DNA of 64,000 nt, taken from Escherichia coli (GTDB lineage Bacteria; Pseudomonadota; Gammaproteobacteria; Enterobacterales; Enterobacteriaceae). This document shows positions 7,983 to 45,177 of the stretch, one piece after another. The translations under genes were made by a program, and so were the position numbers. Position 1 is the first letter of the stretch, and each line of letters starts with the position of its first letter. The DNA lies in NCBI RefSeq assembly GCF_001677475.2, contig NZ_CP015229.1. The stretch is one strand, 5' to 3'. The notes below the pieces were generated by a model, which did no database searches, was not told the origin of the DNA, and was given only the letters and a program-made list of their open reading frames with translations.

Positions 7983-8008
7983 GGGCGTCAGAAATGACGC
8001 CTTTTTTA
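7983..8008 (+). terminator. Rho-independent terminator after J
   Basis: Stem GGCGTCA/TGACGCC with GAAA loop followed by TTTTTT. Confidence 0.6.
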
Positions 8009-8031
8009 TTGCAGAAAAGCGAGAGGTAATT

Positions 8032-8631: not shown

Positions 8632-8657
8632 TTAGCCAGGTAACACAGTGTTATGAC

Positions 8658-8686
8658 AGCCCGCCGGGTTCAGGCGGGCTTTTTTG
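8658..8686 (+). terminator. Rho-independent terminator after lom
   Basis: Stem AGCCCGCC/GGCGGGCT followed by TTTTT. Confidence 0.65.
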
Positions 8687-8696
8687 TGGGGTGAAT

Positions 8697-10787
8697 ATGG
8701 CAGTAAAGATTTCAGGTGTCCTGAAGGACGGAGCGGGTGAGCCTGTCGTAAACTGTGCGATTGAATTGCGAGCCAGAAGAACCAGTCCGACAGTTGTGGT
8801 TAATATTGTGGCAACCTGTCTTACGGGAAGTGATGGCGGGTATACTATTAATGCTGAGCCGGGATTTTATGATGTATTTTTGTCCCGCTCAGGGCATCCT
8901 CCTGTAAAGGCGGGGGAAATTTATGTTGCACCGACAGATGAGCCGGATACGCTGAATGCTTTTCTGGATGCACCAAAGGAGGGTGATTTACGCCCTGAGG
9001 TAATGAAGCGTTTTGAGGAAATGGTAAATACCGTTGTTCGCTTGTCTGAGCAGGTGGTCAGTGACAGGGAGAGAGCAGAAACAGCTGCTGATGATGCAAT
9101 CAATGCAGCAACATCTGCGGCGGTTAGTAAGGATGAGGCAGAAGAGCTAAAAAATCAGACACAGCAGAGCGCCGAAGCTGCAGCCGGAAACGCACAGCAG
9201 ACGGCACAGGATGTGACGACAACCGCAACGGCCCGTGATGATGCGGAACGTTTTGCGGGTGAGGCAGAAAACAGCGCACAGTCATCAGGCACAGCGCGGG
9301 ACGAATCAGTCGATGCCGCCGAACGCGCCCGCCTTTATCATAATGCCGCATCATCAGCAGCGACCAGTTCAGAACTGTCGGCAAATGCGGCGCTGGGGCA
9401 CAAAAACAGTGCCGCCGAATACGCCCGACAGGCTAAAGCCAGCCAGGATGCAGGTGCAGACAATGCGCAGGAAGCGAAACAGTACAGGGATGAGGCGCAG
9501 CAGATAGTTGATGACCTGAATGCAACAAATGCCTCCACGACAGAAAAAGGTCTGGTGCAACTCTGTAGTGATACGGACAACGACAGCGAGGAACTGGCTG
9601 CCACGCCAAAGGCTGTCAAAGACGTCATGGACGAGGCGAAAACAAAAGCGCCACTGGACAGTCCGGCCTTCACCGGCACCCCAACCACCCCAACCCCACC
9701 GGATGATGCCGCCGGTCTGGAAGCAGCGAACGCAGCGTTTGTGCGCAAACTGCTTGCTGCGCTGGTTGGCTCATCGCCGGAAGTTCTGGACACCCTGAAC
9801 GAGCTGGCAGCGGCGCTGGGCAATGACCCGAACTTTGCGACGACAATCACAAACGCGCTGGCAGGCAAACAACCGCTTAATGACGTCTTAACGGCAATCA
9901 GCGCACTGACGCAACGGGCAGATAATCTTCTGTACTTCAATACAGACGGGAATGCCTCACTGTCTCTGCTGTCAGAGAAGGGCCGCGCATTACTGGCGCA
10001 TGACACGGCTGAAGCCATGCGCACGGAGCTTGAGCTGAACGCGGCTGCGACGATGGAACCCCAGAGTGATATCCGTGACCGCACACCGGGCAGGCTGGCC
10101 CTGTCCGGGATGTATGGGTTTGGACAGGCATTCACCAGCACTGACGCTCTGGCGTTTGAGGGGCTGTCTGATTTCGTTGAGTGGTTGAAGAAAGTCACGC
10201 CGGGGCGGTATGCGGTCAGTATTACAGACTCCTCGCAACTGCTTACCGGTACCACGCAATTTAACGGCATTATTGATGTGATGTGGTCACCGTACGCCAA
10301 CAGTGAATCCGACACAGTCCGCAAATTTAAAACCCTGATGTGCTACAACCAGTATTATCAGGGTGAACACTGTATTCACTATATGCAGTACCGGTACAAC
10401 GACAGCGATAACAGCTGGAACATGTCATCGCGGGTAGTTGTATACGACGGAGATTCACTGGCGTACCTGCTGTCCAGGATGGCGGGCTCAGGCTCATATT
10501 ATAAATACCCGGCCGTTGGTGTGCCGATTATGGCGGCATATCAGGGGGAGAGTTTTGGTGCAGATGCGTCTCTGGGGCTCGGTGATATTGTGCCGGGTTC
10601 CCGTCTTGGCCCTCTGGCTATGAGTGCACGGGTTAGCGATACAGGGACATACGCATCCTCACCGCAGGTTGTGATTGGCGGTGCTGGTGAATACAACTTC
10701 CCCGGTCGTTACACGGCGCTTTCGGGGACCCGCATTAGTCACGATACAACGCGTGGCTATATCGGTCTTTTTGTACGCATTGAGTAA
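8697..10787 (+). CDS. stf: Prophage side tail fibre protein (Stf-like)
   Basis: About 696 aa ORF (ATG at 8697; the ORF track starts at GTG 8691); Ala/Gln/Glu-rich fibrous central region; followed by tfa. Confidence 0.8.
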   Translation: MAVKISGVLKDGAGEPVVNCAIELRARRTSPTVVVNIVATCLTGSDGGYTINAEPGFYDVFLSRSGHPPVKAGEIYVAPTDEPDTLNAFLDAPKEGDLRPEVMKRFEEMVNTVVRLSEQVVSDRERAETAADDAINAATSAAVSKDEAEELKNQTQQSAEAAAGNAQQTAQDVTTTATARDDAERFAGEAENSAQSSGTARDESVDAAERARLYHNAASSAATSSELSANAALGHKNSAAEYARQAKASQDAGADNAQEAKQYRDEAQQIVDDLNATNASTTEKGLVQLCSDTDNDSEELAATPKAVKDVMDEAKTKAPLDSPAFTGTPTTPTPPDDAAGLEAANAAFVRKLLAALVGSSPEVLDTLNELAAALGNDPNFATTITNALAGKQPLNDVLTAISALTQRADNLLYFNTDGNASLSLLSEKGRALLAHDTAEAMRTELELNAAATMEPQSDIRDRTPGRLALSGMYGFGQAFTSTDALAFEGLSDFVEWLKKVTPGRYAVSITDSSQLLTGTTQFNGIIDVMWSPYANSESDTVRKFKTLMCYNQYYQGEHCIHYMQYRYNDSDNSWNMSSRVVVYDGDSLAYLLSRMAGSGSYYKYPAVGVPIMAAYQGESFGADASLGLGDIVPGSRLGPLAMSARVSDTGTYASSPQVVIGGAGEYNFPGRYTALSGTRISHDTTRGYIGLFVRIE

Positions 10788-10801
10788 TAAGGAAATAAGA
10801 C

Positions 10802-11380
10802 ATGAAAATCAGAGCGGTGAAAGGCATCAGAAACGCGCATTATCTTGAAAATGGTGCGGTTGACTGCGAGGTGTTATTTGAAGGTGAAACGGAGTTCGTC
10901 CTGTATACCGCCATACAGGATGATATGGCCCCGACAGGCCAGCATGTCTGGCAGGAGCTGCAAAGCGGGAAATGGGGCGAAATCGCCCCGTTCACCGTCA
11001 CGCCGGAACTTATTGCAGCGGCAAAGGATGCCAAAAGGCGGGAAATTGAGGCATGGCGCGACAGTCAGGAAAACGTTGAGTTTATTTTCACGTTTGATGG
11101 CCGTCGTTTTGATGGCGGAAAAACCTCGCAGTCACGCCTTGCCCCCGTGGTTGCAACAGCACAGGCCGGACTGCTTCCGGAGGGATTTTTCTGGACTGAT
11201 GCGGATAATAATAACGTCGTACTGACCAGGGAGAAACTTATTGCGCTGAACGATGCCATGATGGTGGCCATGGTGGCGGAGGGCTTTAAAATCCACGAAC
11301 GTCAGCGGGAGATGAAAGAGGAACTGAGCAGCCTGGAGGATTTACGCTCAATCAGAGCGATGGCGATTAGCAGTAATTAG
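10802..11380 (+). CDS. tfa: Tail fibre assembly protein (Tfa-like chaperone)
   Basis: 192 aa ORF immediately downstream of stf; Tfa-like length and position. Confidence 0.8.
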   Translation: MKIRAVKGIRNAHYLENGAVDCEVLFEGETEFVLYTAIQDDMAPTGQHVWQELQSGKWGEIAPFTVTPELIAAAKDAKRREIEAWRDSQENVEFIFTFDGRRFDGGKTSQSRLAPVVATAQAGLLPEGFFWTDADNNNVVLTREKLIALNDAMMVAMVAEGFKIHERQREMKEELSSLEDLRSIRAMAISSN

Positions 11381-11470
11381 CGGTCAATTCTGGGCTCTTT
11401 GTCTGCTCCTTCACCGTCTGGAATTGTGTGTCAATTAGCCTGGAATTAATCGGGTTCAGATTGTTTTGTT

Positions 11471-11513
11471 GTGGCAAAATTGGGACAAAAGGGGCAAAAA
11501 TGGGGCAAAAAAA
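11471..11513. repeat. Four tandem approximately 10-bp GGGGCAAAA-like units (phased A-tracts)
   Basis: GTGGCAAAAT / TGGGACAAAA / GGGGCAAAAA / TGGGGCAAAAAAA read directly from the sequence, helically phased. Confidence 0.7.
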
Positions 11514-11805
11514 GAGTAGGTTATTGTGGTTTATTGTAGTTGCTGATATGTTTTAATTCATTGAAAATGAAATAAAATACTTATGAGTCAGATGGTTGCA
11601 ATTTTTGTCCTTACTTGTTCAGGTTGTATTGTTCTTTCTTACTAATTTCTTGATTTTGCGACATTTAAAAGCGACTCAATTCGTTATATGGCATCAGAAG
11701 AGTATGCGTCATGCCGGAATGCCCAGCATAAGAAATCTGATATAAAAACAGTGGCGTGTATGGTACGGATTAGAGGGGAAAATGTCAGCACATTTGCGAA
11801 ATGAA

Positions 11806-11836
11806 TCAAAAAGCCCGCAGCAATGTGCGGGCGTTA
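11806..11836 (-). terminator. Rho-independent terminator downstream of uspF
   Basis: On the minus strand: stem GCCCGCA/TGCGGGC followed by TTTTTGATTC, directly after the uspF stop. Confidence 0.6.
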
Positions 11837-11839
11837 GTG

Positions 11840-12355
<516 letters not shown>

Positions 12356-12414
12356 TTAGATCAAAGGAGGAAGAATAAGCAGAAAAAGCCCGCCATAACA
12401 GCGGGCAGGAGGAT

Positions 12415-13548
12415 TTAGAACTGATAAACCAGACCTAAAGCGACAATATCATCGGTAGAGATGCCGTTGGCAGCGTAGAAGCTGTCATCTTCATCCAACA
12501 GGTTGATTTTATAGTCAACATAGGTGGACATGTTTTTATTGAAATAGTAAGTCGCGCCAACATCGGCGTATTTAACCAGATCTTTATCATCAACACCTGC
12601 CGGGTTGTCTGCACCACCGGCAGCGTGCAGGTCACGGCCTTTAGACATCAGGAAAGAGACTGCCGGACGCAGACCAAAATCAAACTGGTACTGTGCAGTA
12701 ACTTCAAAGTTCTGGGTTTTGTTTGCAACAGCATAATCGCTGTCGCCAAACGGGGTCATATTACGCGTTTCTGAATACATGGTTGCCAGGTAAATATTGT
12801 TAGCATCGTATTTTAGCCCAGCAGTCCACGCGTCTGCTTTATCACCACCCGCCGCAGTATGGTTAACCTGGTCATTGGTGCGGTCAGAAGAGGTGTATGC
12901 CGCACCAGCGCTAAAGCCCATGCCTAAATCATATGTTGTGGAAAGACCCCAGCCGTCACCGTTTTCATGGCGAACATCACGTCCGTTGTTGGTGCCTTCC
13001 TGACCATTACTGGCACCTTCGTTGTTACCTTGATACTGCACCGCGAAGTTCAGACCATTTACCAGACCGAAGAAATCAGTATTACGATAAGTCGCGACGC
13101 CATTGGCACGACCAGTCATAAAGTTGTCTGCATTGGTATAAGAGTCACCGCCAAATTCAGGCAGCATATCGGTCCAGCCTTCGATGTCGTACATTACGCC
13201 ATAATTACGTCCGTAATCGAAAGAACCGTAATCTGCAAATTTCAATCCGGCAAATGCCAGACGGGTCCATGACTGGTTTTTTGAGGATTCAGTGTTGTTT
13301 GCCTGAATATTGTATTCCCATTGACCGTAGCCAGTGAGTTGATCGTTAATTTGGGTTTCGCCTTTAAAACCCAGACGCGCATAGCTCTGGTCGCCATCTT
13401 TCGCTGAATTATCAGAAAAATAATGCAGGCCATCAACTTTGCCATACAGATCTAATTTGTTGCCGTCTTTATTATAAACTTCGGCTGCATGTGCAGCACC
13501 TGCGGCGAGCAGGGCAGGAATTAAAAGTGCCAGTACTTTGCTTTTCAT
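12415..13548 (-). CDS. ompN: Outer membrane porin OmpN (OmpC/OmpF family)
   Basis: 377 aa porin with signal peptide and C-terminal ...LVYQF; located between uspF and micC/ydbK as in K-12. Confidence 0.85.
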
Positions 13549-13775
13549 TGAATAAATCCTTTAGTTATTTTATTTGCCTTTTATCCCCATTTCGGGGAGT
13601 GAAAACATCCTAAAGGAGAAGTTCAGTTAGCCGATAAATATCATTTGTTACGCCTTAAGTAAAACCTTAATCAAATAATTCCTCTGAAATGACAATAAGT
13701 CTTGTGAATGTATCGAAGATAATACATACAAAATAAAAATTATACTTTTAATTTGCTATACGTTATTCTGCGCGG

Positions 13776-13884
13776 GTTATATGCCTTTATTGTCACAGAT
13801 TTTATTTTCTGTTGGGCCATTGCATTGCCACTGATTTTCCAACATATAAAAAGACAAGCCCGAACAGTCGTCCGGGCTTTTTTT
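13776..13884 (+). ncRNA. micC: MicC small regulatory RNA (Hfq-dependent, represses ompC)
   Basis: Sequence GTTATATGCCTTTATTGTCACAGATTTTATTTTCTGTTGGGCC...CCCGAACAGTCGTCCGGGCTTTTTTT matches recalled MicC including the terminator hairpin; ompN-ydbK intergenic position. Confidence 0.9.
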
Positions 13885-13913
13885 TAGAATTGGATAATCC
13901 TTATCCAGAGCAT

Positions 13914-16900
13914 TTAATCGGTGTTGCTTTTTTCCGCTTTTCCGGCCATTTGTGCCAGGAAGTCATAGCGTTTTTGCAAATCAGCTGCGGCATCTTTCCA
14001 TAACTGTTCTGCCACTTCTGGCTGCTGCGAATTCAGACGACGGAAACGCTGCTCGTGAAGTAACGTTTCTTCCAGTGCTTCTGACGGCGGGCGTGAATCC
14101 AGCGCCAGCGGCAGTTTGCCTTCATCGGCACGACGCGGATCAAAGCGATATAGCGGCCAGAAGCCGGTAGCAGTGAGTTGGCGCATCTGGTCGTGACTGA
14201 GTGCCAGATCGTAACCATGCTCTTCACACGGGCTATAAGCGATGATCAGCGATGGCCCCGGATACGCTTCCGCTTCCTGAATCGCTTTCACCGTCTGGTT
14301 GAGCTGCGCGCCGAGAGAAATCTGCGCCACATAAACATGACCGTACATCATCATACTGACGCCAAGATCTTTACGCGCTTTACGTTTGCCGTGCTCGCCG
14401 AACTTAGTTACTGCACCCAGCGGTGTCGCTTTCGACGCCTGACCACCGGTGTTGGAATAGCATTGCGTATCCAGCACCAGAATGTTGATGTTTTCCGTCA
14501 AACTCAATACATGATCCAGACCGCCAAAGCCGATATCGTAAGCCCAGCCATCACCACCAATCAGCCAGATTGATTTTTCCACCAGTGCATCTGCGTCACG
14601 TAGCAGTTCATGTGCTTCGGCAACATCGTTGAGTTGCTGGCGTAAAGCTGCAACCTGCTCACGACGAACCTCTGGCGTAGCGTCTGATTTCAACGCCGTC
14701 AGTAATTCCGTCGGGATTTTATCGGCAAATTGATCCAGCAGACGAAGCACGCGGACACGGTGTTGATCGACCGTCAGGCGGAAACCAAGGCCAAATTCGG
14801 CGTTATCTTCAAACAGCGAGTTCGCCCATGCCGGCCCACGACCGTTGGCATCGGTGGTATACGGTGTAGAGGGCAGGTTACCGCCATAAATTGAAGAACA
14901 GCCGGTGGCGTTAGCGATCAACATCCGGTCGCCATAGAGCTGAGTCAGCAATTTAATATACGGCGTCTCGCCACAACCGGAGCAAGCACCTGAATATTCA
15001 AACAGCGGTGTAATCAGCTGCGATGTACGAATATCAATACGTTCCAGTTTGCTACGGTCGATTTCTGGCAGGTTGAGGAAGAAATCGTAATTGATTTTCT
15101 CTTCTTCGACATGTTCCAGGCGCGACATCATATTGATGGCTTTAATCTCTGGATTCTGACGGTCTTTCGCCGGGCAAACTTCGACGCACAGGTTACAACC
15201 GGTGCAATCTTCCGGAGCCACCTGCAAGACATATTTCTGCCCGCGCATATCACGCGATTTCACATCCAGCGAATGCAGGCTGGCAGGGGCGTTTTCCATC
15301 GCTTCAGGCGGTACCACTTTTGCGCGAATAGCTGAGTGTGGGCAAGCGGCGACGCAGTGGTTACATTGGGTACAGAGTTCCTCTTTCCAGATGGGGATCT
15401 CTTCGGCGATATTGCGTTTTTCCCAGCGCGTGGTGCCCATCGGCCAGGTGCCGTCTGGCGGCAGCGCCGAAACGGGGAGGGCATCACCAAGCCCGGCGAG
15501 CATCGCAGCGGTTACGGTTTTCACGAAATCAGGGGCGGCATCGGAAACCACTGGCGGTCGATTGGCGCTGTGCGGATTTACCGGTTGCAACGGAACTTCT
15601 TCTACGGATTCACGCGCCAGCGCCAGAGCCTGCCAGTTGCGCTCCACCAGATCCTGACCTTTGCTACTGTAACTTTTGGCAATCGCACCCTGCAATTCTG
15701 CGAGGGCGCTATCGCCAGGCAGAATTTGCGTCAGATGGAAAAAAGCCATCTGCATGACGGTATTAATACGGGCCGCCAGGCCACATTCGCGGGCGATTTT
15801 CGCTGCGTTAATCACATAGAAGCGCGCTTTTTTCTGGTTTAGCACGGCCTGAACTTCCTGCGGCAAGCGCGACCACACTTCATCTGCGCTGTACGGCGTG
15901 TTGAGCAGGAAAATGCCGCCAGGTTTTAAACGCTCAGCCATCTGATATTTATCGATAAACTGCAACTGGTGGCAGCCAACAAAATCAGCCTGGGAAATGA
16001 GATAAGCGGAACGAATCGGCTGTTCGCTCACGCGAAGGTGAGAAACCGTCAGGCCGCCCGCCTTTTTGGAGTCGTAAACAAAATAGCCCTGTGCGTACCA
16101 CGGCGTGGAATTACCGATAATCTTGATATTGTTTTTGGTCGCGGAAACGCTGCCATCACTACCAAGGCCATAAAACAAGGCTTCCAGTTTCGCCGAGTTT
16201 GGCAGGGTGTTTTCCGGCAACGGCAGTGACAGATTGGTCACATCATCGTAAATACCAACCGTAAAGCGCGCTTTCGGTTTAGCCGCGTTGAGCTCGGCAA
16301 ATACCGCCAGTACACAGTCCGGGCCAAATTCTTTGGATGAAAGACCATAGCGCCCACCAATGACACGGGGCAGGATTTCACGCTCGCCATTATTAAAAGC
16401 TTCTGCCAGTGCGGTCATCACATCCAGATAGAGCGGTTCTGCCTGGGCACCAGGTTCTTTGGTTCTGTCCAGTACCGCCACGCTGCGTACGGATCCCGGC
16501 AGAGCTTGTAGCAAGTGTTTGGCGGAGAAGGGACGGTACAGGCGAACTTTCAGCACGCCAACTTTTTCGCCACGGGTTAGCAATTCATCAACCACTTCTT
16601 CACAGGTGCCAATGGCAGAGCCCATCAGGATAATCACCCGTTCCGCTTGCGGATGCCCGTAATATTCAAACGGCTGATACTGACGACCTGTCGCGGCAGA
16701 GAAATCATTCATCGCCTGTTCAACATGGTCATAGACCGCGTTGTACCATGGGTTGGTGGCTTCGCGAGACTGGAAATAAGTGTCAGGATTGGCGGACGTA
16801 CCGCGGATCACCGGATGTTCCGGGTTGAGTGCCCGGGCGCGATGAGCATCAATTTCGGCCTGCGGCATGAGATCAAGAATCGTGTCATCGGCCAGCGGGA

Positions 16901-17438
16901 CAATTTTATTGATTTCGTGGGACGTGCGGAAACCATCAAAGAAATGAATAAATGGCACGCGGCTTTTCAGCGTCGCGATGTGCGAAATGAGAGCAAAGTC
17001 TTGCGCTTCCTGGACGTTTGCTGCACACAACATCGCGCAACCCGTCTGGCGCACCGCCATGACGTCGGAATGATCGCCAAAAATAGAGAGTGCATGTGTG
17101 GCAACGGTACGTGCCGCTACATGCAGGACAAACGGTGTGAGTTCGCCTGCCAGTTTGTACAGCGTCGGGATCATCAGCAGCAAACCCTGCGATGACGTAA
17201 ACGATGTTGAAAGAGCACCCGTCTGCAAAGCGCCATGCACGGTAGCGATAGCACCCGCTTCCGACTGCATTTCAACCACGCGTGGTGTGTCTCCCCAAAC
17301 GTTCTTCAAGCCGTTTCCGGCCCAGGCATCAGCCTGTTCTGCCATCGTGGAACTGGGGGTAATAGGGTAGATGGCGATAACTTCACTGGTGCGAAACGCC
17401 ACCGAAGCAACCGCGCCATTACCGTCAATAGTAATCAT
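13914..17438 (-). CDS. ydbK: Pyruvate:flavodoxin/ferredoxin oxidoreductase
   Basis: 1174 aa; TPP-binding and two 4Fe-4S ferredoxin motifs (CTQCNHCVAACP, CTGCNLCVEVCP). Confidence 0.95.
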   Translation of the reverse strand: MITIDGNGAVASVAFRTSEVIAIYPITPSSTMAEQADAWAGNGLKNVWGDTPRVVEMQSEAGAIATVHGALQTGALSTSFTSSQGLLLMIPTLYKLAGELTPFVLHVAARTVATHALSIFGDHSDVMAVRQTGCAMLCAANVQEAQDFALISHIATLKSRVPFIHFFDGFRTSHEINKIVPLADDTILDLMPQAEIDAHRARALNPEHPVIRGTSANPDTYFQSREATNPWYNAVYDHVEQAMNDFSAATGRQYQPFEYYGHPQAERVIILMGSAIGTCEEVVDELLTRGEKVGVLKVRLYRPFSAKHLLQALPGSVRSVAVLDRTKEPGAQAEPLYLDVMTALAEAFNNGEREILPRVIGGRYGLSSKEFGPDCVLAVFAELNAAKPKARFTVGIYDDVTNLSLPLPENTLPNSAKLEALFYGLGSDGSVSATKNNIKIIGNSTPWYAQGYFVYDSKKAGGLTVSHLRVSEQPIRSAYLISQADFVGCHQLQFIDKYQMAERLKPGGIFLLNTPYSADEVWSRLPQEVQAVLNQKKARFYVINAAKIARECGLAARINTVMQMAFFHLTQILPGDSALAELQGAIAKSYSSKGQDLVERNWQALALARESVEEVPLQPVNPHSANRPPVVSDAAPDFVKTVTAAMLAGLGDALPVSALPPDGTWPMGTTRWEKRNIAEEIPIWKEELCTQCNHCVAACPHSAIRAKVVPPEAMENAPASLHSLDVKSRDMRGQKYVLQVAPEDCTGCNLCVEVCPAKDRQNPEIKAINMMSRLEHVEEEKINYDFFLNLPEIDRSKLERIDIRTSQLITPLFEYSGACSGCGETPYIKLLTQLYGDRMLIANATGCSSIYGGNLPSTPYTTDANGRGPAWANSLFEDNAEFGLGFRLTVDQHRVRVLRLLDQFADKIPTELLTALKSDATPEVRREQVAALRQQLNDVAEAHELLRDADALVEKSIWLIGGDGWAYDIGFGGLDHVLSLTENINILVLDTQCYSNTGGQASKATPLGAVTKFGEHGKRKARKDLGVSMMMYGHVYVAQISLGAQLNQTVKAIQEAEAYPGPSLIIAYSPCEEHGYDLALSHDQMRQLTATGFWPLYRFDPRRADEGKLPLALDSRPPSEALEETLLHEQRFRRLNSQQPEVAEQLWKDAAADLQKRYDFLAQMAGKAEKSNTD

Positions 17439-17711
17439 ATGACACCCTTACATTGCGCAAATGAGGGGCGCACGAAATTGCTGCGCGCCCAGTAGTAATC
17501 TTTCAATTTTAGCAAATGGCTTTCTTCTGCATTTTCGCTTTTGTGTCCCCCACATCAGCGTAATGAATGTTTTGATCAAACAGAGGGCAAAAAAATAGCC
17601 ATAAAAAAGTAAAAATGCGGGGCAATGCGCAGGACAGCTCTCGACGTCGCCCTCTGTGCTGCCTATTATTTATGGCGGTGTCGTTTGGCTTGAAGATCAG
17701 AGGAAGAAAAG

Positions 17712-17978
17712 ATGCGAGCAGCGTTTTGGGTAGGGTGTGCCGCTTTATTGTTGTCGGCGTGTAGTAGTGAACCTGTTCAGCAGGCGACTGCGGCGCACGT
17801 AGCGCCAGGTTTAAAAGCGTCGATGTCCAGTAGTGGAGAAGCAAATTGTGCAATGATCGGCGGTTCGCTTTCTGTTGCCCGTCAACTGGATGGTACGGCG
17901 ATTGGGATGTGTGCATTACCCAACGGCAAACGCTGTAGCGAACAGTCACTTGCCGCCGGGAGCTGTGGCAGCTATTAA
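17712..17978 (+). CDS. ydbJ: Small putative lipoprotein (DUF333 family)
   Basis: 88 aa with lipobox LLLSAC, RBS AGAGGAAG upstream; K-12 synteny. Confidence 0.8.
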   Translation: MRAAFWVGCAALLLSACSSEPVQQATAAHVAPGLKASMSSSGEANCAMIGGSLSVARQLDGTAIGMCALPNGKRCSEQSLAAGSCGSY

Positions 17979-18397
17979 TTCATTAAATCCGCCAGCTTAT
18001 AAGTTAATGTCTGTTTCGCGGTCGCCAGCGTTAACTGGTTCGCGGTCAGATCCACTTGTGCACCTTCCTTCAGCATGTCGCTAATGGTGTTATCAAGTTC
18101 ATTAAGCTGCGGGTTAGCGCACATCATACGGGTCATTGCCAGCCCTTTGGCTGTCAGTTCACCATTAGACAGTTTGCCTTCACCGCTAAAGCGGTTACAC
18201 ATGCTGCCGGAAATCATCATTTTTTCACCAAAGCTGATTTCTGGCGGATTTTTATCGCTGGTCACGGGCTTACCGTTTACGCTTTCCAGCACAAAGCGAT
18301 GATGCTGTAGCTGTTCTGGCGTTACAGCAATTTTGTCATTACTTACACATCCCGCCATCAGCAGGCTTAGCGCAACAAACGCGGCTACTTTCTTCAT
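17975..18397 (-). CDS. hslJ: Heat-shock lipoprotein HslJ (META domain)
   Basis: 140 aa from MKKVAAFVALSLLMAGC (lipobox); K-12 synteny. Confidence 0.85.
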   Translation of the reverse strand: MKKVAAFVALSLLMAGCVSNDKIAVTPEQLQHHRFVLESVNGKPVTSDKNPPEISFGEKMMISGSMCNRFSGEGKLSNGELTAKGLAMTRMMCANPQLNELDNTISDMLKEGAQVDLTANQLTLATAKQTLTYKLADLMN

Positions 18398-18507
18398 TGT
18401 GGTTCTCAATTACAGTTTCTGACTCAGGACTATTTTAAGAATAGAGAATGAAAGGTCATTGGGGATTATCTGAATCAGCTCCCCTGGATTGCAGGGGAGC
18501 GGCAAGA

Positions 18508-19497
18508 TTAAACCAGTTCGTTCGGGCAGGTTTCGCCTTTTTCCAGATTGCTTAAGTTTTGCAGCGTAGTCTGAGAAATACTGGTCAGAGCTTCTGCTGT
18601 CAGGAATGCCTGGTGCCCGGTAAACAGCACGTTGTGGCAGGCAGACAGGCGACGGAATACGTCATCCTGGATCACGTCGTTGGATTTATCTTCAAAGAAC
18701 AGATCGCGTTCGTTCTCATACACGTCCATACCCAACGAACCAATTTTCTGATTTTTCAGCGCTTCAATAGCCGCCTGAGAATCAATTAATGCACCGCGAC
18801 TGGTATTGACGATCATCACGCCATTTTTCATCTGATCGAAGGCGGCTTCGTTCAAAAGATGGTAGTTTTCCGGTATCAGTGGGCAGTGCAGAGAGATAAC
18901 GTCTGATTCAGAGAACAGGGTTGGCAGATCGACATACTCCACACCGAGTTCCAGCGCCGCCGCACTTGGATACGGATCGAACGCCAGCAGACGCATACCA
19001 AAACCTTTCAGAATGCGCAGCATCGCCACACCGATTTTACCGGTACCGATAACGCCTGCCGTTTTGCCATACATAGTAAAGCCGGTCAGACCTTCCAGAG
19101 AGAAGTTAGCGTCACGGGTACGCTGATACGCGCGGTGAATACGGCGGTTCAGCGTCATCATCATACCGATGGCGTGTTCAGCAACGGCCTCTGGATCATA
19201 GGCTGGAACACGGACTACTTTCAGCCCCAGTTCTTTTGCCGCGTCAAGGTCGACGTTGTTGAAACCGGCACAGCGCAGGGCGATATATTTAACGCCGTGC
19301 TTTTTCAGCTCTTCCAGCACCGGGCGGCTGCCGTCATCGTTTACGAAAATACATACCGCTTCGCAGCCATTGGCAGTTTTAGCGGTTTTTTCCGTCAGCA
19401 GAAAGTCAAAAAATTCCAGCTCAAAGCCAAAGGACTCGTTCACCTGTTGCAGGTACTTCTTGTCGTACTGTTTTGTGCTATAAACGGCGAGTTTCAT
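18508..19497 (-). CDS. ldhA: Fermentative D-lactate dehydrogenase (NAD-dependent)
   Basis: 329 aa D-2-hydroxyacid dehydrogenase with GxGxxG (GVIGTGKIG). Confidence 0.95.
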   Translation of the reverse strand: MKLAVYSTKQYDKKYLQQVNESFGFELEFFDFLLTEKTAKTANGCEAVCIFVNDDGSRPVLEELKKHGVKYIALRCAGFNNVDLDAAKELGLKVVRVPAYDPEAVAEHAIGMMMTLNRRIHRAYQRTRDANFSLEGLTGFTMYGKTAGVIGTGKIGVAMLRILKGFGMRLLAFDPYPSAAALELGVEYVDLPTLFSESDVISLHCPLIPENYHLLNEAAFDQMKNGVMIVNTSRGALIDSQAAIEALKNQKIGSLGMDVYENERDLFFEDKSNDVIQDDVFRRLSACHNVLFTGHQAFLTAEALTSISQTTLQNLSNLEKGETCPNELV

Positions 19498-19704
19498 AAG
19501 ACTTTCTCCAGTGATGTTGAATCACATTTAAGCTACTAAAAATATTTTACAAAATTTCAAATATAATTGAAAGCTATGGCGATATTGAAAAATTCATCAA
19601 CAACTATGCTTAGTGTAGGCGCAACCTTCAACTGAACGGTTAAACATGCCACAATACCCGTATTGAATGCTTAATTTTTCGCTAAATCAGGATATTAACT
19701 ACCC

Positions 19705-22344
19705 ATGCTGGGTAAATATAAAGCCGTTCTCGCGCTGTTATTACTGATTATTCTTGTGCCGTTGACGCTGCTGATGACGCTCGGGCTGTGGGTTCCCACG
19801 CTGGCGGGCATCTGGCTACCGCTCGGGACACGTATTGCATTAGATGAAAGCCCACGCATTACGCGTAAAGGTTTAATCATTCCCGATCTCCGTTATCTGG
19901 TGGGAGATTGTCAGCTTGCGCATATCACCAACGCCAGCCTTTCACATCCCAGCCGCTGGTTATTGAACGTCGGCACGGTAGAACTTGATTCAGCTTGTCT
20001 GGCGAAATTGCCGCAGACGGAGCAATCGCCAGCTGCTCCAAAAACCCTCGCGCAGTGGCAGGCCATGTTGCCTAACACCTGGATCAATATCGATAAACTG
20101 ATTTTTTCTCCCTGGCAGGAATGGCAGGGAAAACTTTCTCTCGCGTTAACCTCTGATATCCAGCAACTGCGTTATCAGGGCGAAAAAGTTAAATTTCAAG
20201 GCCAGTTGAAAGGGCAACAACTTACAGTCAGCGAACTGGATGTCGCCGCGTTTGAAAATCAGCCACCGGTAAAACTGGTGGGGGAATTTACTATGCCGCT
20301 CGTGCCGGATGGACTTCCTGTCAGTGGCCATGCTACTGCGACGTTAAACTTGCCGCAGGAACCGTCACTGGTGGATGCCGAGCTGGACTGGCAGGAAAAT
20401 AGCGGGCAATTGATTGTGCTGGCACGGGATAACGGCGATCCGTTGCTCGATTTGCCGTGGCAAATTACTCGTCAACAATTGACCGTAAGCGATGGTCGCT
20501 GGAGCTGGCCGTATGCAGGTTTTCCTTTGAGTGGCCGACTGGGTGTCAAAGTCGACAACTGGCAGGCAGGGCTTGAGAACGCTCTGGTCAGCGGACGACT
20601 GAGTGTGCTGACCCAGGGGCAAGCGGGTAAGGGCAACGCGGTGCTTAATTTTGGCCCAGGAAAATTAAGTATGGATAACAGCCAGCTGCCTTTGCAGCTG
20701 ACCGGTGAAGCGAAACAGGCGGACCTCATTTTATATGCCCGCTTACCCGCGCAGCTAAGCGGAAGTCTGACTGACCCAACGCTGGCCTTTGAGCCAGGCG
20801 CGTTATTACGTTCGAAGGGAAGAGTCATCGATTCGCTGGACATCGATGAAATCCGTTGGCCATTAGCGGGTGTAAAAGTCACCCAACGTGGTGTTGACGG
20901 ACGTTTGCAGGCCATTTTGCAGGCGCATGAAAATGAACTGGGCGATTTCGTGCTGCATATGGATGGGCTGGCGAATGATTTTCTCCCTGACGCTGGCCGC
21001 TGGCAGTGGCGCTACTGGGGAAAAGGGAGTTTTACACCGATGAATGCCACCTGGGATGTCGCAGGAAAAGGTGAGTGGCATGACAGCACGATTACGCTGA
21101 CCGATCTCTCCACCGGTTTCGACCAGTTACAATACGGTACGATGACGGTAGAAAAGCCGCGATTAATTCTCGACAAGCCCGTCGTCTGGGTACGTGACGC
21201 ACAGCATCCCTCCTTCAGCGGCGCGCTGTCACTGGACGCCGGGCAAACGCTGTTCACTGGCGGCAGTGTGTTACCGCCATCAACCTTAAAATTTAGCGTC
21301 GATGGACGCGAACCGACGTATTTCCTCTTTAAAGGCGATTTACATGCTGGTGAGATTGGCCCGGTTCGGGTAAATGGTCGCTGGGACGGTATTCGTCTGC
21401 GCGGTAACGCCTGGTGGCCTAAACAATCACTGACTGTATTCCAGCCGCTGGTGCCACCCGACTGGAAGATGAACTTACGCGATGGCGAACTGTATGCTCA
21501 GGTCGCATTTTCTGCTGCGCCTGAACAAGGATTCCGCGCGGGAGGGCACGGTGTGTTGAAAGGCGGTAGTGCCTGGATGCCAGATAATCAGGTTAACGGT
21601 GTCGATTTTGTCCTGCCTTTCCGTTTTGCCGATGGAGCCTGGCATCTGGGGACTCGCGGCCCCGTTACGTTGCGAATTGCCGAAGTGATTAATCTGGTGA
21701 CAGCGAAAAATATTACGGCTGATTTGCAAGGGCGCTATCCGTGGACAGAAGAAGAACCATTGCTGTTGACTGATGTTAGCGTCGATGTGTTAGGCGGTAA
21801 CGTGCTGATGAAACAATTACGTATGCCGCAACATGACCCGGCGCTGTTGCGGCTGAATAATCTCTCATCCAGCGAACTGGTTAGCGCCGTCAATCCGAAA
21901 CAATTCGCCATGTCCGGGGCATTTAGTGGTGCATTGCCGTTATGGCTAAACAACGAAAAATGGATAGTGAAAGATGGTTGGCTGGCAAATAGCGGGCCAA
22001 TGACCTTGCGGCTGGATAAAGACACCGCAGATGCGGTGGTGAAAGACAATATGACTGCGGGTTCAGCAATTAACTGGTTGCGCTATATGGAAATTAGCCG
22101 TTCATCGACAAATATTAATTTAGATAATCTCGGTTTATTAACCATGCAGGCCAACATTACAGGTACCAGTCGCGTTGATGGTAAAAGCGGTACGGTAAAC
22201 CTTAATTACCATCATGAAGAGAATATTTTTACGCTGTGGCGCAGTTTACGCTTTGGCGATAATCTCCAGGCATGGTTGGAGCAGAACGCACGTCTGCCGG
22301 GAAATGACTGTCCGCAAGGAAAAGAGTGTGAGGAAAAACAATGA
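19705..22344 (+). CDS. ydbH: AsmA/TamB-like envelope protein YdbH
   Basis: 879 aa with N-terminal TM segment; K-12 synteny. Confidence 0.9.
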   Translation: MLGKYKAVLALLLLIILVPLTLLMTLGLWVPTLAGIWLPLGTRIALDESPRITRKGLIIPDLRYLVGDCQLAHITNASLSHPSRWLLNVGTVELDSACLAKLPQTEQSPAAPKTLAQWQAMLPNTWINIDKLIFSPWQEWQGKLSLALTSDIQQLRYQGEKVKFQGQLKGQQLTVSELDVAAFENQPPVKLVGEFTMPLVPDGLPVSGHATATLNLPQEPSLVDAELDWQENSGQLIVLARDNGDPLLDLPWQITRQQLTVSDGRWSWPYAGFPLSGRLGVKVDNWQAGLENALVSGRLSVLTQGQAGKGNAVLNFGPGKLSMDNSQLPLQLTGEAKQADLILYARLPAQLSGSLTDPTLAFEPGALLRSKGRVIDSLDIDEIRWPLAGVKVTQRGVDGRLQAILQAHENELGDFVLHMDGLANDFLPDAGRWQWRYWGKGSFTPMNATWDVAGKGEWHDSTITLTDLSTGFDQLQYGTMTVEKPRLILDKPVVWVRDAQHPSFSGALSLDAGQTLFTGGSVLPPSTLKFSVDGREPTYFLFKGDLHAGEIGPVRVNGRWDGIRLRGNAWWPKQSLTVFQPLVPPDWKMNLRDGELYAQVAFSAAPEQGFRAGGHGVLKGGSAWMPDNQVNGVDFVLPFRFADGAWHLGTRGPVTLRIAEVINLVTAKNITADLQGRYPWTEEEPLLLTDVSVDVLGGNVLMKQLRMPQHDPALLRLNNLSSSELVSAVNPKQFAMSGAFSGALPLWLNNEKWIVKDGWLANSGPMTLRLDKDTADAVVKDNMTAGSAINWLRYMEISRSSTNINLDNLGLLTMQANITGTSRVDGKSGTVNLNYHHEENIFTLWRSLRFGDNLQAWLEQNARLPGNDCPQGKECEEKQ

Positions 22345-22533: not shown

Positions 22534-22860
22534 ATGAAAAGAACATTGCTTCTTTGTGCATTTCTTGTTGGGCTGGTAAGCAGCAATGTAATGGCATTGA
22601 CTCTGGATGAAGCCAGAACTCAGGGGCGGGTAGGTGAAACATTTTATGGTTATCTGGTTGCGCTGAAAACGGATGCTGAAACAGAGAAATTAGTAACCGA
22701 AATTAATGCCGAACGTAAAGCGAGTTACCAACAACTGGCAAAGCAAAATAATGTGTCTGTAGATGATATCGCGAAACTCGCCGGGCAAAAGCTCGTAGCT
22801 CGGGCCAAACCGGGGGAATATGTACAAGGGATAAACGGTAAATGGGTGCGAAAATTTTAA
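22534..22860 (+). CDS. ydbL: Periplasmic protein YdbL (DUF1318)
   Basis: 108 aa from MKRTLLLCAFLVGL... with signal peptide; the 135-aa ORF-track start overlapping ynbE is rejected. Confidence 0.8.
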   Translation: MKRTLLLCAFLVGLVSSNVMALTLDEARTQGRVGETFYGYLVALKTDAETEKLVTEINAERKASYQQLAKQNNVSVDDIAKLAGQKLVARAKPGEYVQGINGKWVRKF

Positions 22861-23031
22861 TAGCAAAACCGCAATATCGGGATAACGCTACAGGAGAAAG
22901 CGATTGATCTATTTTCATGAAACAAGTTGAATATTCAAAAACTCCTGTCAAATTGCCTTTCGCCCTGAAAAATGCATAGTCAACTATCTGTTTTAACTAA
23001 TTGGCGTTGCAGTACACACAACGCGAATTAG

Positions 23032-40193: not shown

Positions 40194-41144
40194 ATGAGTA
40201 AACTTGATACTTTTATCCAACATGCTGTCAACGCTGTTCCTGTCAGTGGCACATCTTTGATCTCCTCTCTGTATGGTGATTCGCTTTCCCATCGTGGTGG
40301 TGAAATCTGGCTGGGTAGTCTGGCTGCTTTGCTGGAAGGGCTGGGATTTGGTGAGCGTTTCGTCCGCACCGCTTTGTTTCGTCTTAATAAAGAAGGCTGG
40401 CTGGATGTTTCCCGCATCGGGCGACGCAGTTTCTATAGCCTCAGTGATAAAGGCTTGCGTCTGACGCGACGGGCAGAAAGTAAAATTTATCGCGCAGAGC
40501 AACCTGCATGGGATGGTAAATGGCTCCTGTTGCTCTCGGAAGGTTTAGATAAATCAACGCTGGCTGATGTCAAAAAGCAGTTGATCTGGCAAGGTTTTGG
40601 CGCACTGGCACCCAGCCTGATGGCATCGCCGTCGCAAAAACTGGCGGATGTACAGACACTTTTGCATGAAGCGGGTGTGGCGGATAACGTGATTTGTTTT
40701 GAAGCGCAAATACCACTGGCGCTTTCTCGTGCAGCACTGCGTGCCAGAGTGGAAGAGTGCTGGCATTTAACTGAACAAAATGCCATGTACGAAACCTTTA
40801 TTCAGTCATTCCGCCCGCTGGTGCCGCTGTTAAAAGAGACGGCAGACGAGTTAACCCCGGAGCGTGCATTTCATATTCAGCTTTTACTGATCCATTTTTA
40901 TCGCCGTGTCGTCCTTAAAGACCCATTATTGCCGGAGGAGTTGCTTCCGGCACACTGGGCAGGGCATACGGCGCGTCAGCTGTGTATCAACATTTATCAG
41001 CGCGTAGCGCCTGCTGCTTTAGCGTTCGTTAGTGAAAAAGGTGAAACCTCGGTCGGTGAACTGCCTTCGCCGGGTAGCCTGTATTTTCAACGTTTTGGCG
41101 GTTTGAATATTGAACAGGAGGCGTTATGCCAATTTATCAGATAG
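40194..41144 (+). CDS. paaX: Phenylacetyl-CoA-responsive transcriptional repressor PaaX
   Basis: 316 aa. Confidence 0.95.
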
Positions 41145-41716
41145 ACGGTCTGACTCCGGTTGTACCAGAAGAGAGTTTTGTTCATCCGACAGCGGTATTG
41201 ATCGGCGATGTTATTCTCGGCAAGGGCGTTTACGTTGGACCAAATGCCAGTCTGCGTGGCGATTTTGGTCGTATCGTGGTGAAAGATGGCGCGAACATTC
41301 AGGATAATTGCGTTATGCACGGTTTTCCCGAGCAGGATACTGTCGTTGAAGAAGATGGGCATATTGGTCATAGCGCTATCCTTCACGGCTGCATTATCCG
41401 CCGCAATGCATTAGTGGGAATGAACGCGGTCGTGATGGACGGTGCGGTGATTGGCGAGAATAGCATTGTTGGCGCATCCGCATTTGTGAAAGCCAAAGCA
41501 GAAATGCCTGCTAATTACCTGATTGTCGGCAGCCCGGCGAAACCGATTCGTGAACTCAGTGAGCAGGAGCTGGCATGGAAAAAGCAGGGCACGCATGAGT
41601 ATCAGGTGCTGGTGACACGTTGTAAGCAGACGTTGCATCAAGTCGAACCATTGCGGGAAGTTGAGGCTGGCAGGCAGCGTCTGGTATTTGATGAGAATCT
41701 GCGACCGAAACAGTAA
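41126..41716 (+). CDS. paaY: Hexapeptide-repeat thioesterase/acyltransferase PaaY
   Basis: 196 aa left-handed beta-helix protein; overlaps paaX end. Confidence 0.95.
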
Positions 41717-41760
41717 CGTCCTGATGCTGGACGTTCTAATTTTTAGCATGTGATACCTAA

Positions 41761-41793
41761 ACCGCAACGCTGATACAGGTTGCGGTTTTTTTA
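41761..41793 (+). terminator. Rho-independent terminator after paaY
   Basis: Stem ACCGCAAC/GTTGCGGT followed by TTTTTTT. Confidence 0.75.
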
Positions 41794-41947
41794 TTGCCGA
41801 ATGCGGCGCTTTACGCGTTTTGTTTTGGTGTCTTTCAGGACAATAGAGCAACTCATCCAGTAATCTTGTTTACGCCTTCGCATTATTTATCTCTTTTCGT
41901 TTCTATACTGATTTTTCTCAATCCGTTTTATTACAGGGCAGGGTGCG

Positions 41948-42808
41948 ATGAGCAGCAATACATTTACTCTCGGTACTAAATCCGTTAACCGTCTTGGTTA
42001 TGGCGCGATGCAACTGGCAGGTCCTGGGGTTTTTGGCCCCCCAAGAGATCGCCACGTCGCTATAACCGTGCTGCGTGAGGCGCTGGCATTGGGCGTCAAT
42101 CACATTGATACCAGCGACTTTTATGGTCCGCACGTCACCAATCAGATTATCCGCGAAGCGCTTTATCCTTACTCTGACGACCTGACAATTGTCACTAAAA
42201 TTGGTGCGCGGCGTGGAGAGGACGCTTCCTGGTTGCCCGCCTTTTCTCCGTCAGAGCTGCAAAAAGCGGTGCACGATAATCTACGTAATCTCGGGCTGGA
42301 CGTACTGGATGTGGTTAACTTGCGCATTATGATGGGGGATGGTCATGGCCCAGCGGAAGGCTCGATTGAGGCCAGCCTGACCGTGCTGGCAGAGATGCAA
42401 CAACAAGGCCTGGTAAAACATATTGGCCTGAGCAACGTCACACCGACGCAGGTTGCAGAGGCGCGCAAGATTGCCGAAATTGTCTGTGTGCAAAACGAAT
42501 ACAACATCGCGCACCGTGCTGATGATGCAATGATTGATGCTTTGGCCCACGATGGCATTGCCTACGTGCCGTTCTTCCCGCTCGGGGGCTTTACACCGCT
42601 GCAATCCTCTACGCTGTCGGATGTTGCTGCGAGCCTGGGTGCAACACCCATGCAGGTGGCGCTGGCGTGGCTGTTACAACGTTCACCGAATATTTTGCTG
42701 ATCCCAGGGACGTCTTCTGTTGCTCATTTACGGGAGAATATGGCTGCTGAAAAATTGCATCTTTCTGAGGAAGTGTTGTCTACGTTGGATGGTATTTCGC
42801 GAGAATAA
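41948..42808 (+). CDS. ydbC: Aldo/keto reductase family oxidoreductase
   Basis: 286 aa; K-12 synteny. Confidence 0.85.
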   Translation: MSSNTFTLGTKSVNRLGYGAMQLAGPGVFGPPRDRHVAITVLREALALGVNHIDTSDFYGPHVTNQIIREALYPYSDDLTIVTKIGARRGEDASWLPAFSPSELQKAVHDNLRNLGLDVLDVVNLRIMMGDGHGPAEGSIEASLTVLAEMQQQGLVKHIGLSNVTPTQVAEARKIAEIVCVQNEYNIAHRADDAMIDALAHDGIAYVPFFPLGGFTPLQSSTLSDVAASLGATPMQVALAWLLQRSPNILLIPGTSSVAHLRENMAAEKLHLSEEVLSTLDGISRE

Positions 42809-42820
42809 CGAATATACAAA

Positions 42821-42846
42821 AGGGAAAGATGCATTTCCCTTTTTTT
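42821..42846 (+). terminator. Rho-independent terminator after ydbC
   Basis: Stem AGGGAAA/TTTCCCT followed by TTTTTT. Confidence 0.65.
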
Positions 42847-42870
42847 CTTTTTTAATGGCATGGAGTGCAT

Positions 42871-45177
42871 ATGTTTAAGGCCAGGAATTGCAGCTGGATA
42901 GGTTTACTTCCCCTGTTTATGCTGAGTCTTCCAGTACAGGCGGAACTTCGATGTGTTGCAAATGCAGTTGATATTGAACCATTTTTTTCTGCGGCTACCG
43001 CTGAAGATAAACAACAAGTTGAACAAGCTATCAACAGTAGCGTGAATCTTGTCCCCGTCGGTTTATCTGCACCGGACTGGAAAGTGCATCGTGGCAATTT
43101 AGTGGTGGAAGGTAATATAGAGAGTAATGAAAAATTGATTGTTCTTGGCAATTTGACAGTCAAAGGAAATATTTCCACTTTCTCTCTTTCTAATCCATGG
43201 GTTATTCTCGGTGATGTGACGGCAACGAATATATTTACGGATTCACCACTGTTAATTACCGGTTCGATAGATGCAAGTGGACTGGTATTTATCGACTCAT
43301 ATTACGATAATCCGTCTACGATTAAGGGAAGTATTAATGCGCGCGGGATATTTATCAATGACATAATTGCACCTGTTGTTGTGTCTTCGATAAATAGCGA
43401 ATTCATGGTCCGTGCGGGAGACAAAAATGACACTGAAAATGTCAAAAAAGCACTGACGATAATAAATCCTGATGCATATTATTGGGGCCTAATAAATGAT
43501 GAAGATGCTCTGAAAGAAATTTTTAAGCGAAGCAATATTCGCATGGCAGGGAATGTCTGTAATCAGATGAAAAAAGAAGCGCTGTTTCGCCCTAAGCCTT
43601 CTCCTGAGTTAGTGCAGGAATTGCAAATGCTGGATGAAGGCAAAGTTGCTGCATTTGAAGGACGAGACATTGCGACATTTGATCTTGCCGTAATGCGAAC
43701 TCTCCCAAGGCTTAAAGGAATTTCAGCTAACCTACGCAAACAACTTATTAATAGCAATGATGAACAAACGATTGAAAGTATGGCGAGATATATGCCCGAC
43801 AATGAGATTCTGGAGTTGACCGATCAGCAATTGGGTTACCAGCCTGTGGTTCTGGGGTTGCTCAACCGTGAACCGCTCTCTGTCGAAATAATGACGCGAA
43901 TGAGTCGTCTACCTAATGGTGTCGGTCCGTTGAATCTTGCGCTACGTGAAGATCTCCCTCTGGATATCGTCATGACTCTGGCGAAAAGAGATTGGGATAT
44001 GATCATTCAGGAGCTTTATAAAGATGCGTGGTTATTGCCCGAATCCATTATTGATGGCTATATCCGCAGTGATGATTCCTCTATTCGTCAGGTCGGTGCT
44101 GGAGGACAACTCACCTACAATCAGGCAATGCAGTTGGCGAACGATTCATCAAACAATGTTGTCACAAGCTTAGCGTTCAAGCTGGCAGAGATGAAGCACC
44201 ATGGTCAATTGTTGCGGATGACGCCACAAGAGAGTGACAAAGTTGCAGGCTATTTATACCAAAAATTCGAGAATGACGATGATCTAATACGTGTGTTATT
44301 TTTAGCATTGCCAGATAACTTACAGTTTAATTTTGTTAAAAGGATGGAGAAAAAATCCCCGGCCTACTTTTGCTGTCGGGATATGCAGGTAATTCACTCT
44401 GACGCTGCTTTACAACGGTTATTGACACGTTTCAACGATCCTGAGGGGTGGAGTAATCTGGCGAAAAATCAGTATCTGAGTACGGCGAAGAAACAAAAAA
44501 TTTGGCATCGCGCTTTATCGCATCGAAAAAATAATCCGAAAGCAGATTCAGCTGCATATGAAACCAGCGCTGATATGATTTTGTCTGAGCTTATCAGCCA
44601 CGGTGAAGTTGATGACCAGATGCTATTAAATGCCACCGCCCTGATACGTTTGGAAGACTGGGACTTTTTAGAGAGTGCATTAGTTAGTTGGGATAATTTA
44701 CCCGCTGTTGTCCTCAAGGAATTACAGCAAAATACGCCACGCAATGATATTTGGGCGAAGTTTTTTCTGAGGCAGGAAAACAGCTCCCGTGCGCAGGTTG
44801 ATGAAGCATTACGCGTCTATTATGCACTCGACCCCGGTGCGTTAGCACAACTGGATGTACTGGCAAAACAACCGGATCGTATATGGTGGAGTACACTGGC
44901 GAAAAGCAATCTCACATTTTTCAAGTTCGGCGCACTTAACAACCGCCACACACCGCCTGCAGTACTGGCGGCAGAAATTGATCCCGAGTGGTGGATTGTG
45001 GCGATGAATAATCCCCGTTTTCCAGTTGATGTATTAAAGGCGAGGCTGAAACGTGATCCTTTGCTGGCGTTAGAGCTTGTTAACCCTGAACTGGATTTAG
45101 TCCGCCAGCTGGCGCTTAACGGTAAGACGCGCGCAATACGGGAACAAGCGATGAAAAAACTTGATGAGTTGTATTGA
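42871..45177 (+). CDS. ydbD: Large uncharacterised protein YdbD with N-terminal signal peptide
   Basis: 768 aa from ATG 42871 (the ORF track begins at GTG 42865). Confidence 0.8.
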   Translation: MFKARNCSWIGLLPLFMLSLPVQAELRCVANAVDIEPFFSAATAEDKQQVEQAINSSVNLVPVGLSAPDWKVHRGNLVVEGNIESNEKLIVLGNLTVKGNISTFSLSNPWVILGDVTATNIFTDSPLLITGSIDASGLVFIDSYYDNPSTIKGSINARGIFINDIIAPVVVSSINSEFMVRAGDKNDTENVKKALTIINPDAYYWGLINDEDALKEIFKRSNIRMAGNVCNQMKKEALFRPKPSPELVQELQMLDEGKVAAFEGRDIATFDLAVMRTLPRLKGISANLRKQLINSNDEQTIESMARYMPDNEILELTDQQLGYQPVVLGLLNREPLSVEIMTRMSRLPNGVGPLNLALREDLPLDIVMTLAKRDWDMIIQELYKDAWLLPESIIDGYIRSDDSSIRQVGAGGQLTYNQAMQLANDSSNNVVTSLAFKLAEMKHHGQLLRMTPQESDKVAGYLYQKFENDDDLIRVLFLALPDNLQFNFVKRMEKKSPAYFCCRDMQVIHSDAALQRLLTRFNDPEGWSNLAKNQYLSTAKKQKIWHRALSHRKNNPKADSAAYETSADMILSELISHGEVDDQMLLNATALIRLEDWDFLESALVSWDNLPAVVLKELQQNTPRNDIWAKFFLRQENSSRAQVDEALRVYYALDPGALAQLDVLAKQPDRIWWSTLAKSNLTFFKFGALNNRHTPPAVLAAEIDPEWWIVAMNNPRFPVDVLKARLKRDPLLALELVNPELDLVRQLALNGKTRAIREQAMKKLDELY

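Follow-up and report, generated by a model that had tools for sequence, protein, structure and literature searches.

A probable ancient deletion of the ydbA adhesin gene between paaY and pdxI, shared by many Escherichia coli genomes

The paa-ydbA segment of the Escherichia coli chromosome is described as a 'region of genomic heterogeneity' with variable carriage of ydbA and of the paa genes, bounded by the core genes ydbH/ynbE/ydbL and ynbC/ynbD/azoR (Goldstone et al., 2016, PMC4951805). Full-length ydbA is reported from about 42% of phylogroup A genomes (PMC4951805). The parts of that study that concern the locus report which genes are present or absent, and give no junction, scar or direction of change (Goldstone et al., 2016, PMC4951805); these are worked out here.

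The product of ydbA belongs with the BigA/YdbA type Va autotransporter adhesins, whose intact alleles share the BigA_N and BigA_beta domains and end in Phe. Both domains (PF25784, PF25783) match ydbA of E. coli MLI104K2 and of Pseudocitrobacter, and the C-terminal ydbA fragment of STIN_95 matches the autotransporter beta-domain PF03797. Intact E. coli YdbA scores 1,127 bits against NCBIfam auto_BigA, under the cutoff of 3,400, and YdbA is therefore a relative rather than an equivalog of Salmonella BigA. Many RefSeq records name the N-terminal ydbA fragment (1,797 aa in STIN_95, L005 4485-9878) 'EntS/YbdA MFS transporter'. A domain search of this fragment finds BigA_N and no MFS domain, and the label looks like a mix-up of the names ydbA and ybdA spread by automatic annotation.

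The closest described counterpart of the locus is the ydbA pseudogene of K-12. MG1655 has the order paaY, 330-bp spacer, ydbA 5' fragment, IS2, IS30, ydbA 3' fragment, pdxI, and its 330-bp spacer contains a terminator-like hairpin and an annotated 21-aa ORF. The name ynbG may apply to this ORF; the literature matches for that name concerned yeast medium only. Besides the IS2 and IS30 insertions of K-12, ydbA is inactivated by IS3 in M719 and by a split into two ORFs in O157:H7 and STIN_95, and the intact ydbA of the paa-plus strain MLI104K2 runs to 6,063 nt (2,020 aa). In every other E. coli context seen, ydbA adjoins pdxI with or without the paa island:

K-12, M719, MLI104K2: paa island present, ydbA adjoins pdxI
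O157:H7, GF131, STIN_95: without the paa island, ydbL-ydbA-pdxI

The K-12 paaY-ydbA spacer, hairpin included, also stands 5' of ydbA in STIN_95, and since STIN_95 is paa-less, this 330-bp segment travels with ydbA and not with paaY. The paa island itself (feaRB-tynA-paa) has sharp edges when compared with the paa-less STIN_95: the left edge lies about 63 nt past the ydbL stop and the right edge 13 nt past the paaY stop, as placed from window 22534-22920, L005 4109-4175 and L001 3058-3070. Two divergent allele classes of ydbL (window 22534-22855) occur, one shared by the window and STIN_95, the other found in O157:H7, GF131 and E. albertii with about 76% nucleotide identity to the window and a different 3' end.

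The window, the whole stretch of DNA analysed here, comprises 64,000 nucleotides of E. coli contig NZ_CP015229.1 (assembly GCF_001677475.2). At the paaY-pdxI locus it contains the following genes:

40194-41144, plus strand: paaX
41126-41716, plus strand: paaY, last gene of the paa cluster (TIGR02287, 374.6 bits, cutoff 319.6)
41948-42808, plus strand: pdxI (formerly ydbC), an intact aldo-keto reductase gene (NF007695, 558 bits)
42871-45177, plus strand: ydbD

The paaY reading frame is 95.8% identical to that of K-12, its changes relative to other strains falling mostly at third codon positions, and it stops at TAA (41714-41716); the RefSeq name for the pdxI/ydbC homologue is 'pyridoxine 4-dehydrogenase'. 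A preliminary description of the window had placed the start of ydbC 231 bp past paaY and had described a K-12 arrangement in which an IS-disrupted ydbA separates the two genes. Both points hold: the spacer 41717-41947 measures exactly 231 bp, and MG1655 does carry ydbA fragments, split by IS2 and IS30, between paaY and pdxI. No ydbA-like DNA is detected by blastn anywhere in the 64-kb window, and the absence of ydbA is a real structural difference rather than an effect of alignment or chance. The two loci share their position, flanking genes, ydbA terminator and pdxI upstream region, but K-12 keeps both ydbA halves and the 330-bp upstream segment, whereas the window keeps 18 nt of the ydbA 3' end.

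The surroundings of the locus diverge from those of sequenced relatives. Among 5,426 complete E. coli genomes, the closest reaches 97.6% identity over 22 kb (window 30000-52000) and 98.1% over the 1.75-kb locus (41100-42850). An artefact was considered as the cause of this low identity and rejected, because the bias towards third codon positions indicates natural divergence. The source may belong to a sparsely sampled lineage, or to Shigella or a cryptic clade, groups that a collection of E. coli genomes is not expected to include. In window 1-20000, prophage tail genes (gpJ, tail fibre) are mixed with ompN, nifJ and ldhA; coverage of this segment at a single place does not exceed 73% in any complete genome, and its prophage content is thus strain-specific.

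Alignment of the 231-bp spacer to K-12 and to ydbA-plus genomes, which the preliminary description had proposed as a search for deletion scars or short repeats, gives both breakpoints:

41717, plus strand: last base common with K-12 downstream of paaY (TAAC), from alignment to the K-12 left junction
41718-41721, plus strand: 4-base filler GTCC, matching neither flank
41722-41732, plus strand: ydbA remnant A, TGATGCTGGAC, corresponding to ydbA nt -29 to -19 from the stop-codon end
41733-41739, plus strand: ydbA remnant B, GTTCTAA, the final 7 nt of ydbA, stop codon included
41740-41795, plus strand: sequence directly 3' of ydbA in ydbA-plus strains, including the ydbA intrinsic terminator, near-identical in K-12, O157:H7 and STIN_95
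41796-41947, plus strand: rest of the ydbA-pdxI intergenic region, presumed to hold the pdxI promoter and leader

The left breakpoint falls between 41717 and 41718, one base past the paaY stop codon. It is not the right edge of the paa island, an identity that was considered and rejected: the two are different sites, 12 nt apart. On the right side, homology to K-12 and other ydbA-plus genomes starts within the ydbA gene rather than downstream of it. In the window the sequence is TAA-C-GTCC-TGATGCTGGAC-GTTCTAA-TTTTTAGC..., and in all alleles examined ydbA ends ...GGCGTGATGCTGAAC-TTCAAGAAAAC-GTTCTAA-TTTTTAGC.... The counterpart of remnant A in ydbA is TGATGCTGAAC, the codons for V-M-L-N; the 11 nt TTCAAGAAAAC that lie between the two remnants in intact ydbA are missing, and where the window has the filler GTCC, ydbA has GGCG or GGTG. 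The remnant therefore amounts to 18 nt of coding end (41722-41739), the last 29 nt of ydbA minus 11 nt. Relative to the MLI104K2 allele, the missing segment measures 6,359-6,363 bp, plus these 11 nt.

Several observations tie these short matches to ydbA. The 8,952 nt that separate the paaY and ydbA stops in K-12 contain the 8-mer TGATGCTG at a single place, 29 nt ahead of the ydbA stop, and a match of this kind for a 14-nt junction segment has a chance probability of 0.002-0.008. In the form TGATGCTG(G)AC it equals ydbA -29 to -19, and it is present in the window scar along with GTTCTAA. K-12, M719, O157:H7, STIN_95 and Pseudocitrobacter faecalis all keep the ending ...GTGATGCTGAAC(T/G)T(C/T)AAGAAAACGTTCTAA; in L007, a divergent E. 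coli allele, the stop is TGA and the ending is otherwise the same. Pseudocitrobacter (L008) and L007 share this ending while their spacers 3' of ydbA are unrelated to that of the window, so the shared junction bases are part of ydbA rather than of the spacer.

In Pseudocitrobacter, 5-nt direct repeats, AACGT (AACGTcaagaaAACGT), flank the missing 11 nt, and repeats of this kind, AAC(GT) at this site, are the usual signature of slippage, to judge from the sequence. Short-homology (illegitimate) deletions and quasi-palindrome template-switch mutations are both known in E. coli, and the 11-nt loss between AAC(GT) direct repeats resembles the former. For the large deletion, microhomology of TAA (the paaY stop against GATAAAGG in ydbA) or of AAC was considered; it would span at most 1-3 nt, and the CGTCC filler bars a unique reconstruction.

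Downstream of the remnant, the sequence is that of a ydbA-plus strain. Positions 41740-41947 are 95.2% identical to the K-12 ydbA-pdxI spacer over 208 nt. Within them, 41759-41768 and 41779-41788 form a perfect 10-bp inverted repeat followed by seven T's, and 41759-41795 folds as RNA at -20.5 kcal/mol (z = -4.3). With its G+C-rich hairpin, direct T-run and position 3' of a stop codon, this element qualifies by sequence as an intrinsic (Rho-independent) terminator. The preliminary description had also noted a terminator after paaY, and the hairpin with T-run is found as it said; its reading is refined here in that the element, by its match to the sequence downstream of ydbA, is ydbA's own terminator, now 43 nt past the paaY stop. 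The terminator-like hairpin that follows paaY in K-12 sits in the 330-bp segment and is deleted here along with ydbA. From its position, the former ydbA terminator should be where paaXY transcripts end. A weak REP-like hairpin lies at 41799-41820, a sigma-70 consensus scan of the spacer gives no promoter match, and an Rfam scan of 41500-42100 gives no family. With the pdxI upstream region intact (95% identical to K-12 over the 208 nt), pdxI expression should be unaffected.

The direction of change is informed by outgroups, drawn from a PdxI search of genome contigs in which the matches listed from close relatives are E. albertii, one divergent E. coli, Pseudocitrobacter, Kluyvera and Enterobacter. 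Pseudocitrobacter faecalis has the order paaX-paaY-ydbA (1,982 aa, intact)-pdxI-azoR, which places ydbA in the same gene order in another enterobacterial genus, as a derived loss in E. coli predicts. Among the matches listed, it is the only outgroup genus with the full order paaY-ydbA-pdxI, and transfer of the whole block between genera may be an alternative explanation for it. In E. albertii NBRC 107761 (L006 4977-5523), ydbL stands directly beside pdxI across a 222-bp spacer that matches E. coli only over the ~50 nt nearest pdxI; the locus has no paa island, no ydbA, no ydbA terminator and no visible scar, and is apparently a separate, independent state. Ancestral presence of ydbA is therefore not supported by every Escherichia lineage. 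In Kluyvera and Enterobacter, neither paaY nor ydbA lies within 10 kb upstream of pdxI.

A strongly divergent ydbA-pdxI allele occurs in some E. coli, such as SCPM-O-B-8794 (L007 1-6115; see also L005 12229-13741). At the nucleotide level its pdxI has 87% identity to that of K-12, its REP-containing spacer resembles that of Pseudocitrobacter, and it adjoins an azoR whose product is 99.5% identical to K-12's, with ydbD-ynbABCD missing. These features suggest import of the allele by recombination from another genus.

A single ancient deletion of about 6.36 kb that removed ydbA very probably gave rise to the 231-bp spacer. The ancestor would have carried paaY, the 330-bp spacer, ydbA and pdxI, and the deletion would have begun one base past the end of paaY and extended to a point 29 nt ahead of the ydbA stop codon, taking with it the 330-bp spacer (terminator-like hairpin and 21-aa annotated ORF) and nearly all of the ~2,020 codons of ydbA. 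The further 11 nt would have been lost between the short AAC(GT) direct repeats, together with the large deletion or afterwards. The 18-nt ydbA remnant would have been left behind, with the ydbA terminator placed where paaXY transcripts should end and the region upstream of pdxI unaltered; much of the species would since have received the allele by inheritance, and probably by recombination as well. As expected of a deletion allele, the junction retains residual ydbA sequence (41722-41739). Two features count against this reading: the 4-5 bases GTCC/CGTCC match neither parent, which makes the event more than a simple two-ended deletion, and the remnant is short (18 nt) and alignable only with the extra 11-nt loss.

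The ydbA-less allele is not specific to the source strain of the window. A 134-nt junction probe is fully covered in 2,042 of the 5,426 complete E. coli genomes (about 38%), and a probe for the ydbA 3' end with downstream sequence is covered in 3,086. Some 300 complete genomes are without both; genomes such as LR-28, where homology breaks at about window 41819, and 2EC1, which keeps only the pdxI 3' end, show other rearrangements at this site. Base-by-base reading of nine ydbA-less junctions gives one and the same breakpoint, GTCC filler and 11-nt loss in all of them, the identity expected of carriers with a single origin. Two scar haplotypes account for 2,017 of the 2,042 junction carriers, as counted with two 41-nt junction probes, and 25 match neither. 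Haplotype 1, the window type, reads TGATGCTGGACGTTCTAA (556 genomes); haplotype 2 reads AGATACTGAAC(G/A)TTCTAA (1,461 genomes) and includes O111:H- 11128 and B7A, both strains of phylogroup B1. The spacers of the window and strain WGI31CT differ at three positions only, 41722, 41726 and 41730, and these three haplotype differences cluster within 9 nt (P = 0.003). Because an untemplated filler is common to both haplotypes, one ancestral event followed by drift is the reading adopted; a single origin of the ydbA-less junction is probable, judged from the identical junctions.

The preliminary description had left open whether the strain never acquired ydbA or lost it cleanly, and had suggested that the junction could tell the ancestral state. 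If it was never acquired, the paaY-pdxI arrangement would be ancestral, and ydbA with its 330-bp segment would have been inserted in K-12-like lineages. Such an origin would suit the pdxI genes without upstream ydbA in E. albertii, Kluyvera and Enterobacter sp., the known hotspot of gene-content variation in which the locus lies, and the strong divergence of ydbA alleles and their upstream regions between lineages. It is nevertheless the least probable account considered, and can be given hardly any credence: an empty site should be free of element-derived sequence, but this one holds the final 7 nt of ydbA, stop codon included, along with 11 further coding bases and the ydbA terminator. An insertion would have had to stop 29 nt short of the gene end, in a target where the conserved V-M-L-N...T-F-stop codons already existed with 11 nt to spare. 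Moreover, Pseudocitrobacter and L007 share the ydbA ending without sharing the downstream spacer, and ydbA adjoins pdxI in paa-less lineages too. The scar effectively refutes insertion into an empty site; together with the adjacency of ydbA and pdxI and the Pseudocitrobacter gene order, it makes 'never acquired' untenable. The junction did prove informative: the ydbA gene was in all likelihood lost, and, given the 18 nt that remain, not with perfect cleanness. Several independent deletions at a fragile site, perhaps by way of the palindromic AACGTT or the paa-island edge, would explain why there are two distinct scar haplotypes. The left breakpoint lies close enough to the right edge of the paa island to hint at a fragile spot, and ydbA has been inactivated independently, by other routes, in K-12, M719, O157:H7 and STIN_95. 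Recurrence is still very improbable, because both haplotypes share the left breakpoint, the unmatched filler and the internal loss, and independent events would not recreate an untemplated filler; nearly all carriers, besides, match one or other junction probe.

A further feature of the sequence bears on how the junction acquired its present form:

41715-41735, no strand assigned: 21-nt quasi-palindrome AACGTCC-TGATGCT-GGACGTT, with its centre at the junction and its left end inside the paaY stop codon

Eight of its nine pairs are Watson-Crick, and 21-mers this palindromic occur at 3.1e-4 per window position. In the window haplotype it folds as DNA at -6.4 kcal/mol (z = -4.3), and the terminator scan flagged it too. 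The filler GTCC is complementary to GGAC (41729-41732) in the opposite arm. Relative to the ydbA-like state, taken as the starting point, haplotype 1 would have repaired pair 6-16 and haplotype 2 pair 8-14, the third haplotype difference falling in the palindrome loop. Of the six haplotype-2 junctions read, three carry a ...GAACATT sub-variant with two mismatches in the stem and no significant fold (-1.9 kcal/mol, z = -0.9).

The quasi-palindrome is probably a mutational footprint. A filler complementary to the opposite arm and clustered changes that each repair one mismatch are what quasi-palindrome template switching would leave, and a template switch across the ydbA 3' end might conceivably have created both the deletion and the inverted GTCC, the haplotypes arising through templated hairpin 'corrections'; a weaker form of the idea is that the hairpin affects the 3' end of paaXY mRNA. 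We regard this proposal as possible though rather doubtful: the mechanism is read from the sequence alone, and the filler is not derivable unambiguously. Considerably less likely is that selection favoured the hairpin 41715-41735 for a role in RNA, for instance in stabilising the 3' end of paaXY or attenuating it, after loss of the K-12-type terminator. Its improbability by chance at this spot, the good fold of the window haplotype with a T-rich stretch following, and the clustering of the three differences, two of which each repair a stem mismatch, would fit such selection; yet a strong bona fide terminator lies only ~20 nt downstream, no Rfam family matches, and a selected hairpin at the paaY stop is rated unlikely because the ...GAACATT sub-variant fails to fold.

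On the deletion reading, the ydbA-present state is ancestral at this locus, and the strain carries a derived, very common deletion for which the 41-nt junction sequence would be diagnostic. The junction palindrome is a small curiosity for researchers of deletion mechanisms; if the template-switch proposal were true, it would be a population-scale example of quasi-palindrome mutagenesis in a common natural allele. For the organism, this is gene-loss polymorphism of an ordinary kind, in a region whose variability is already known, and no new biology follows from it. The source strain is without the YdbA adhesin, no functional part of ydbA being left in the window, and the 21-aa ORF and the K-12-type hairpin after paaY are also gone. 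In this respect, ydbA is another large adhesin gene that E. coli lineages lose repeatedly, by IS insertion, by ORF splitting and by deletion.
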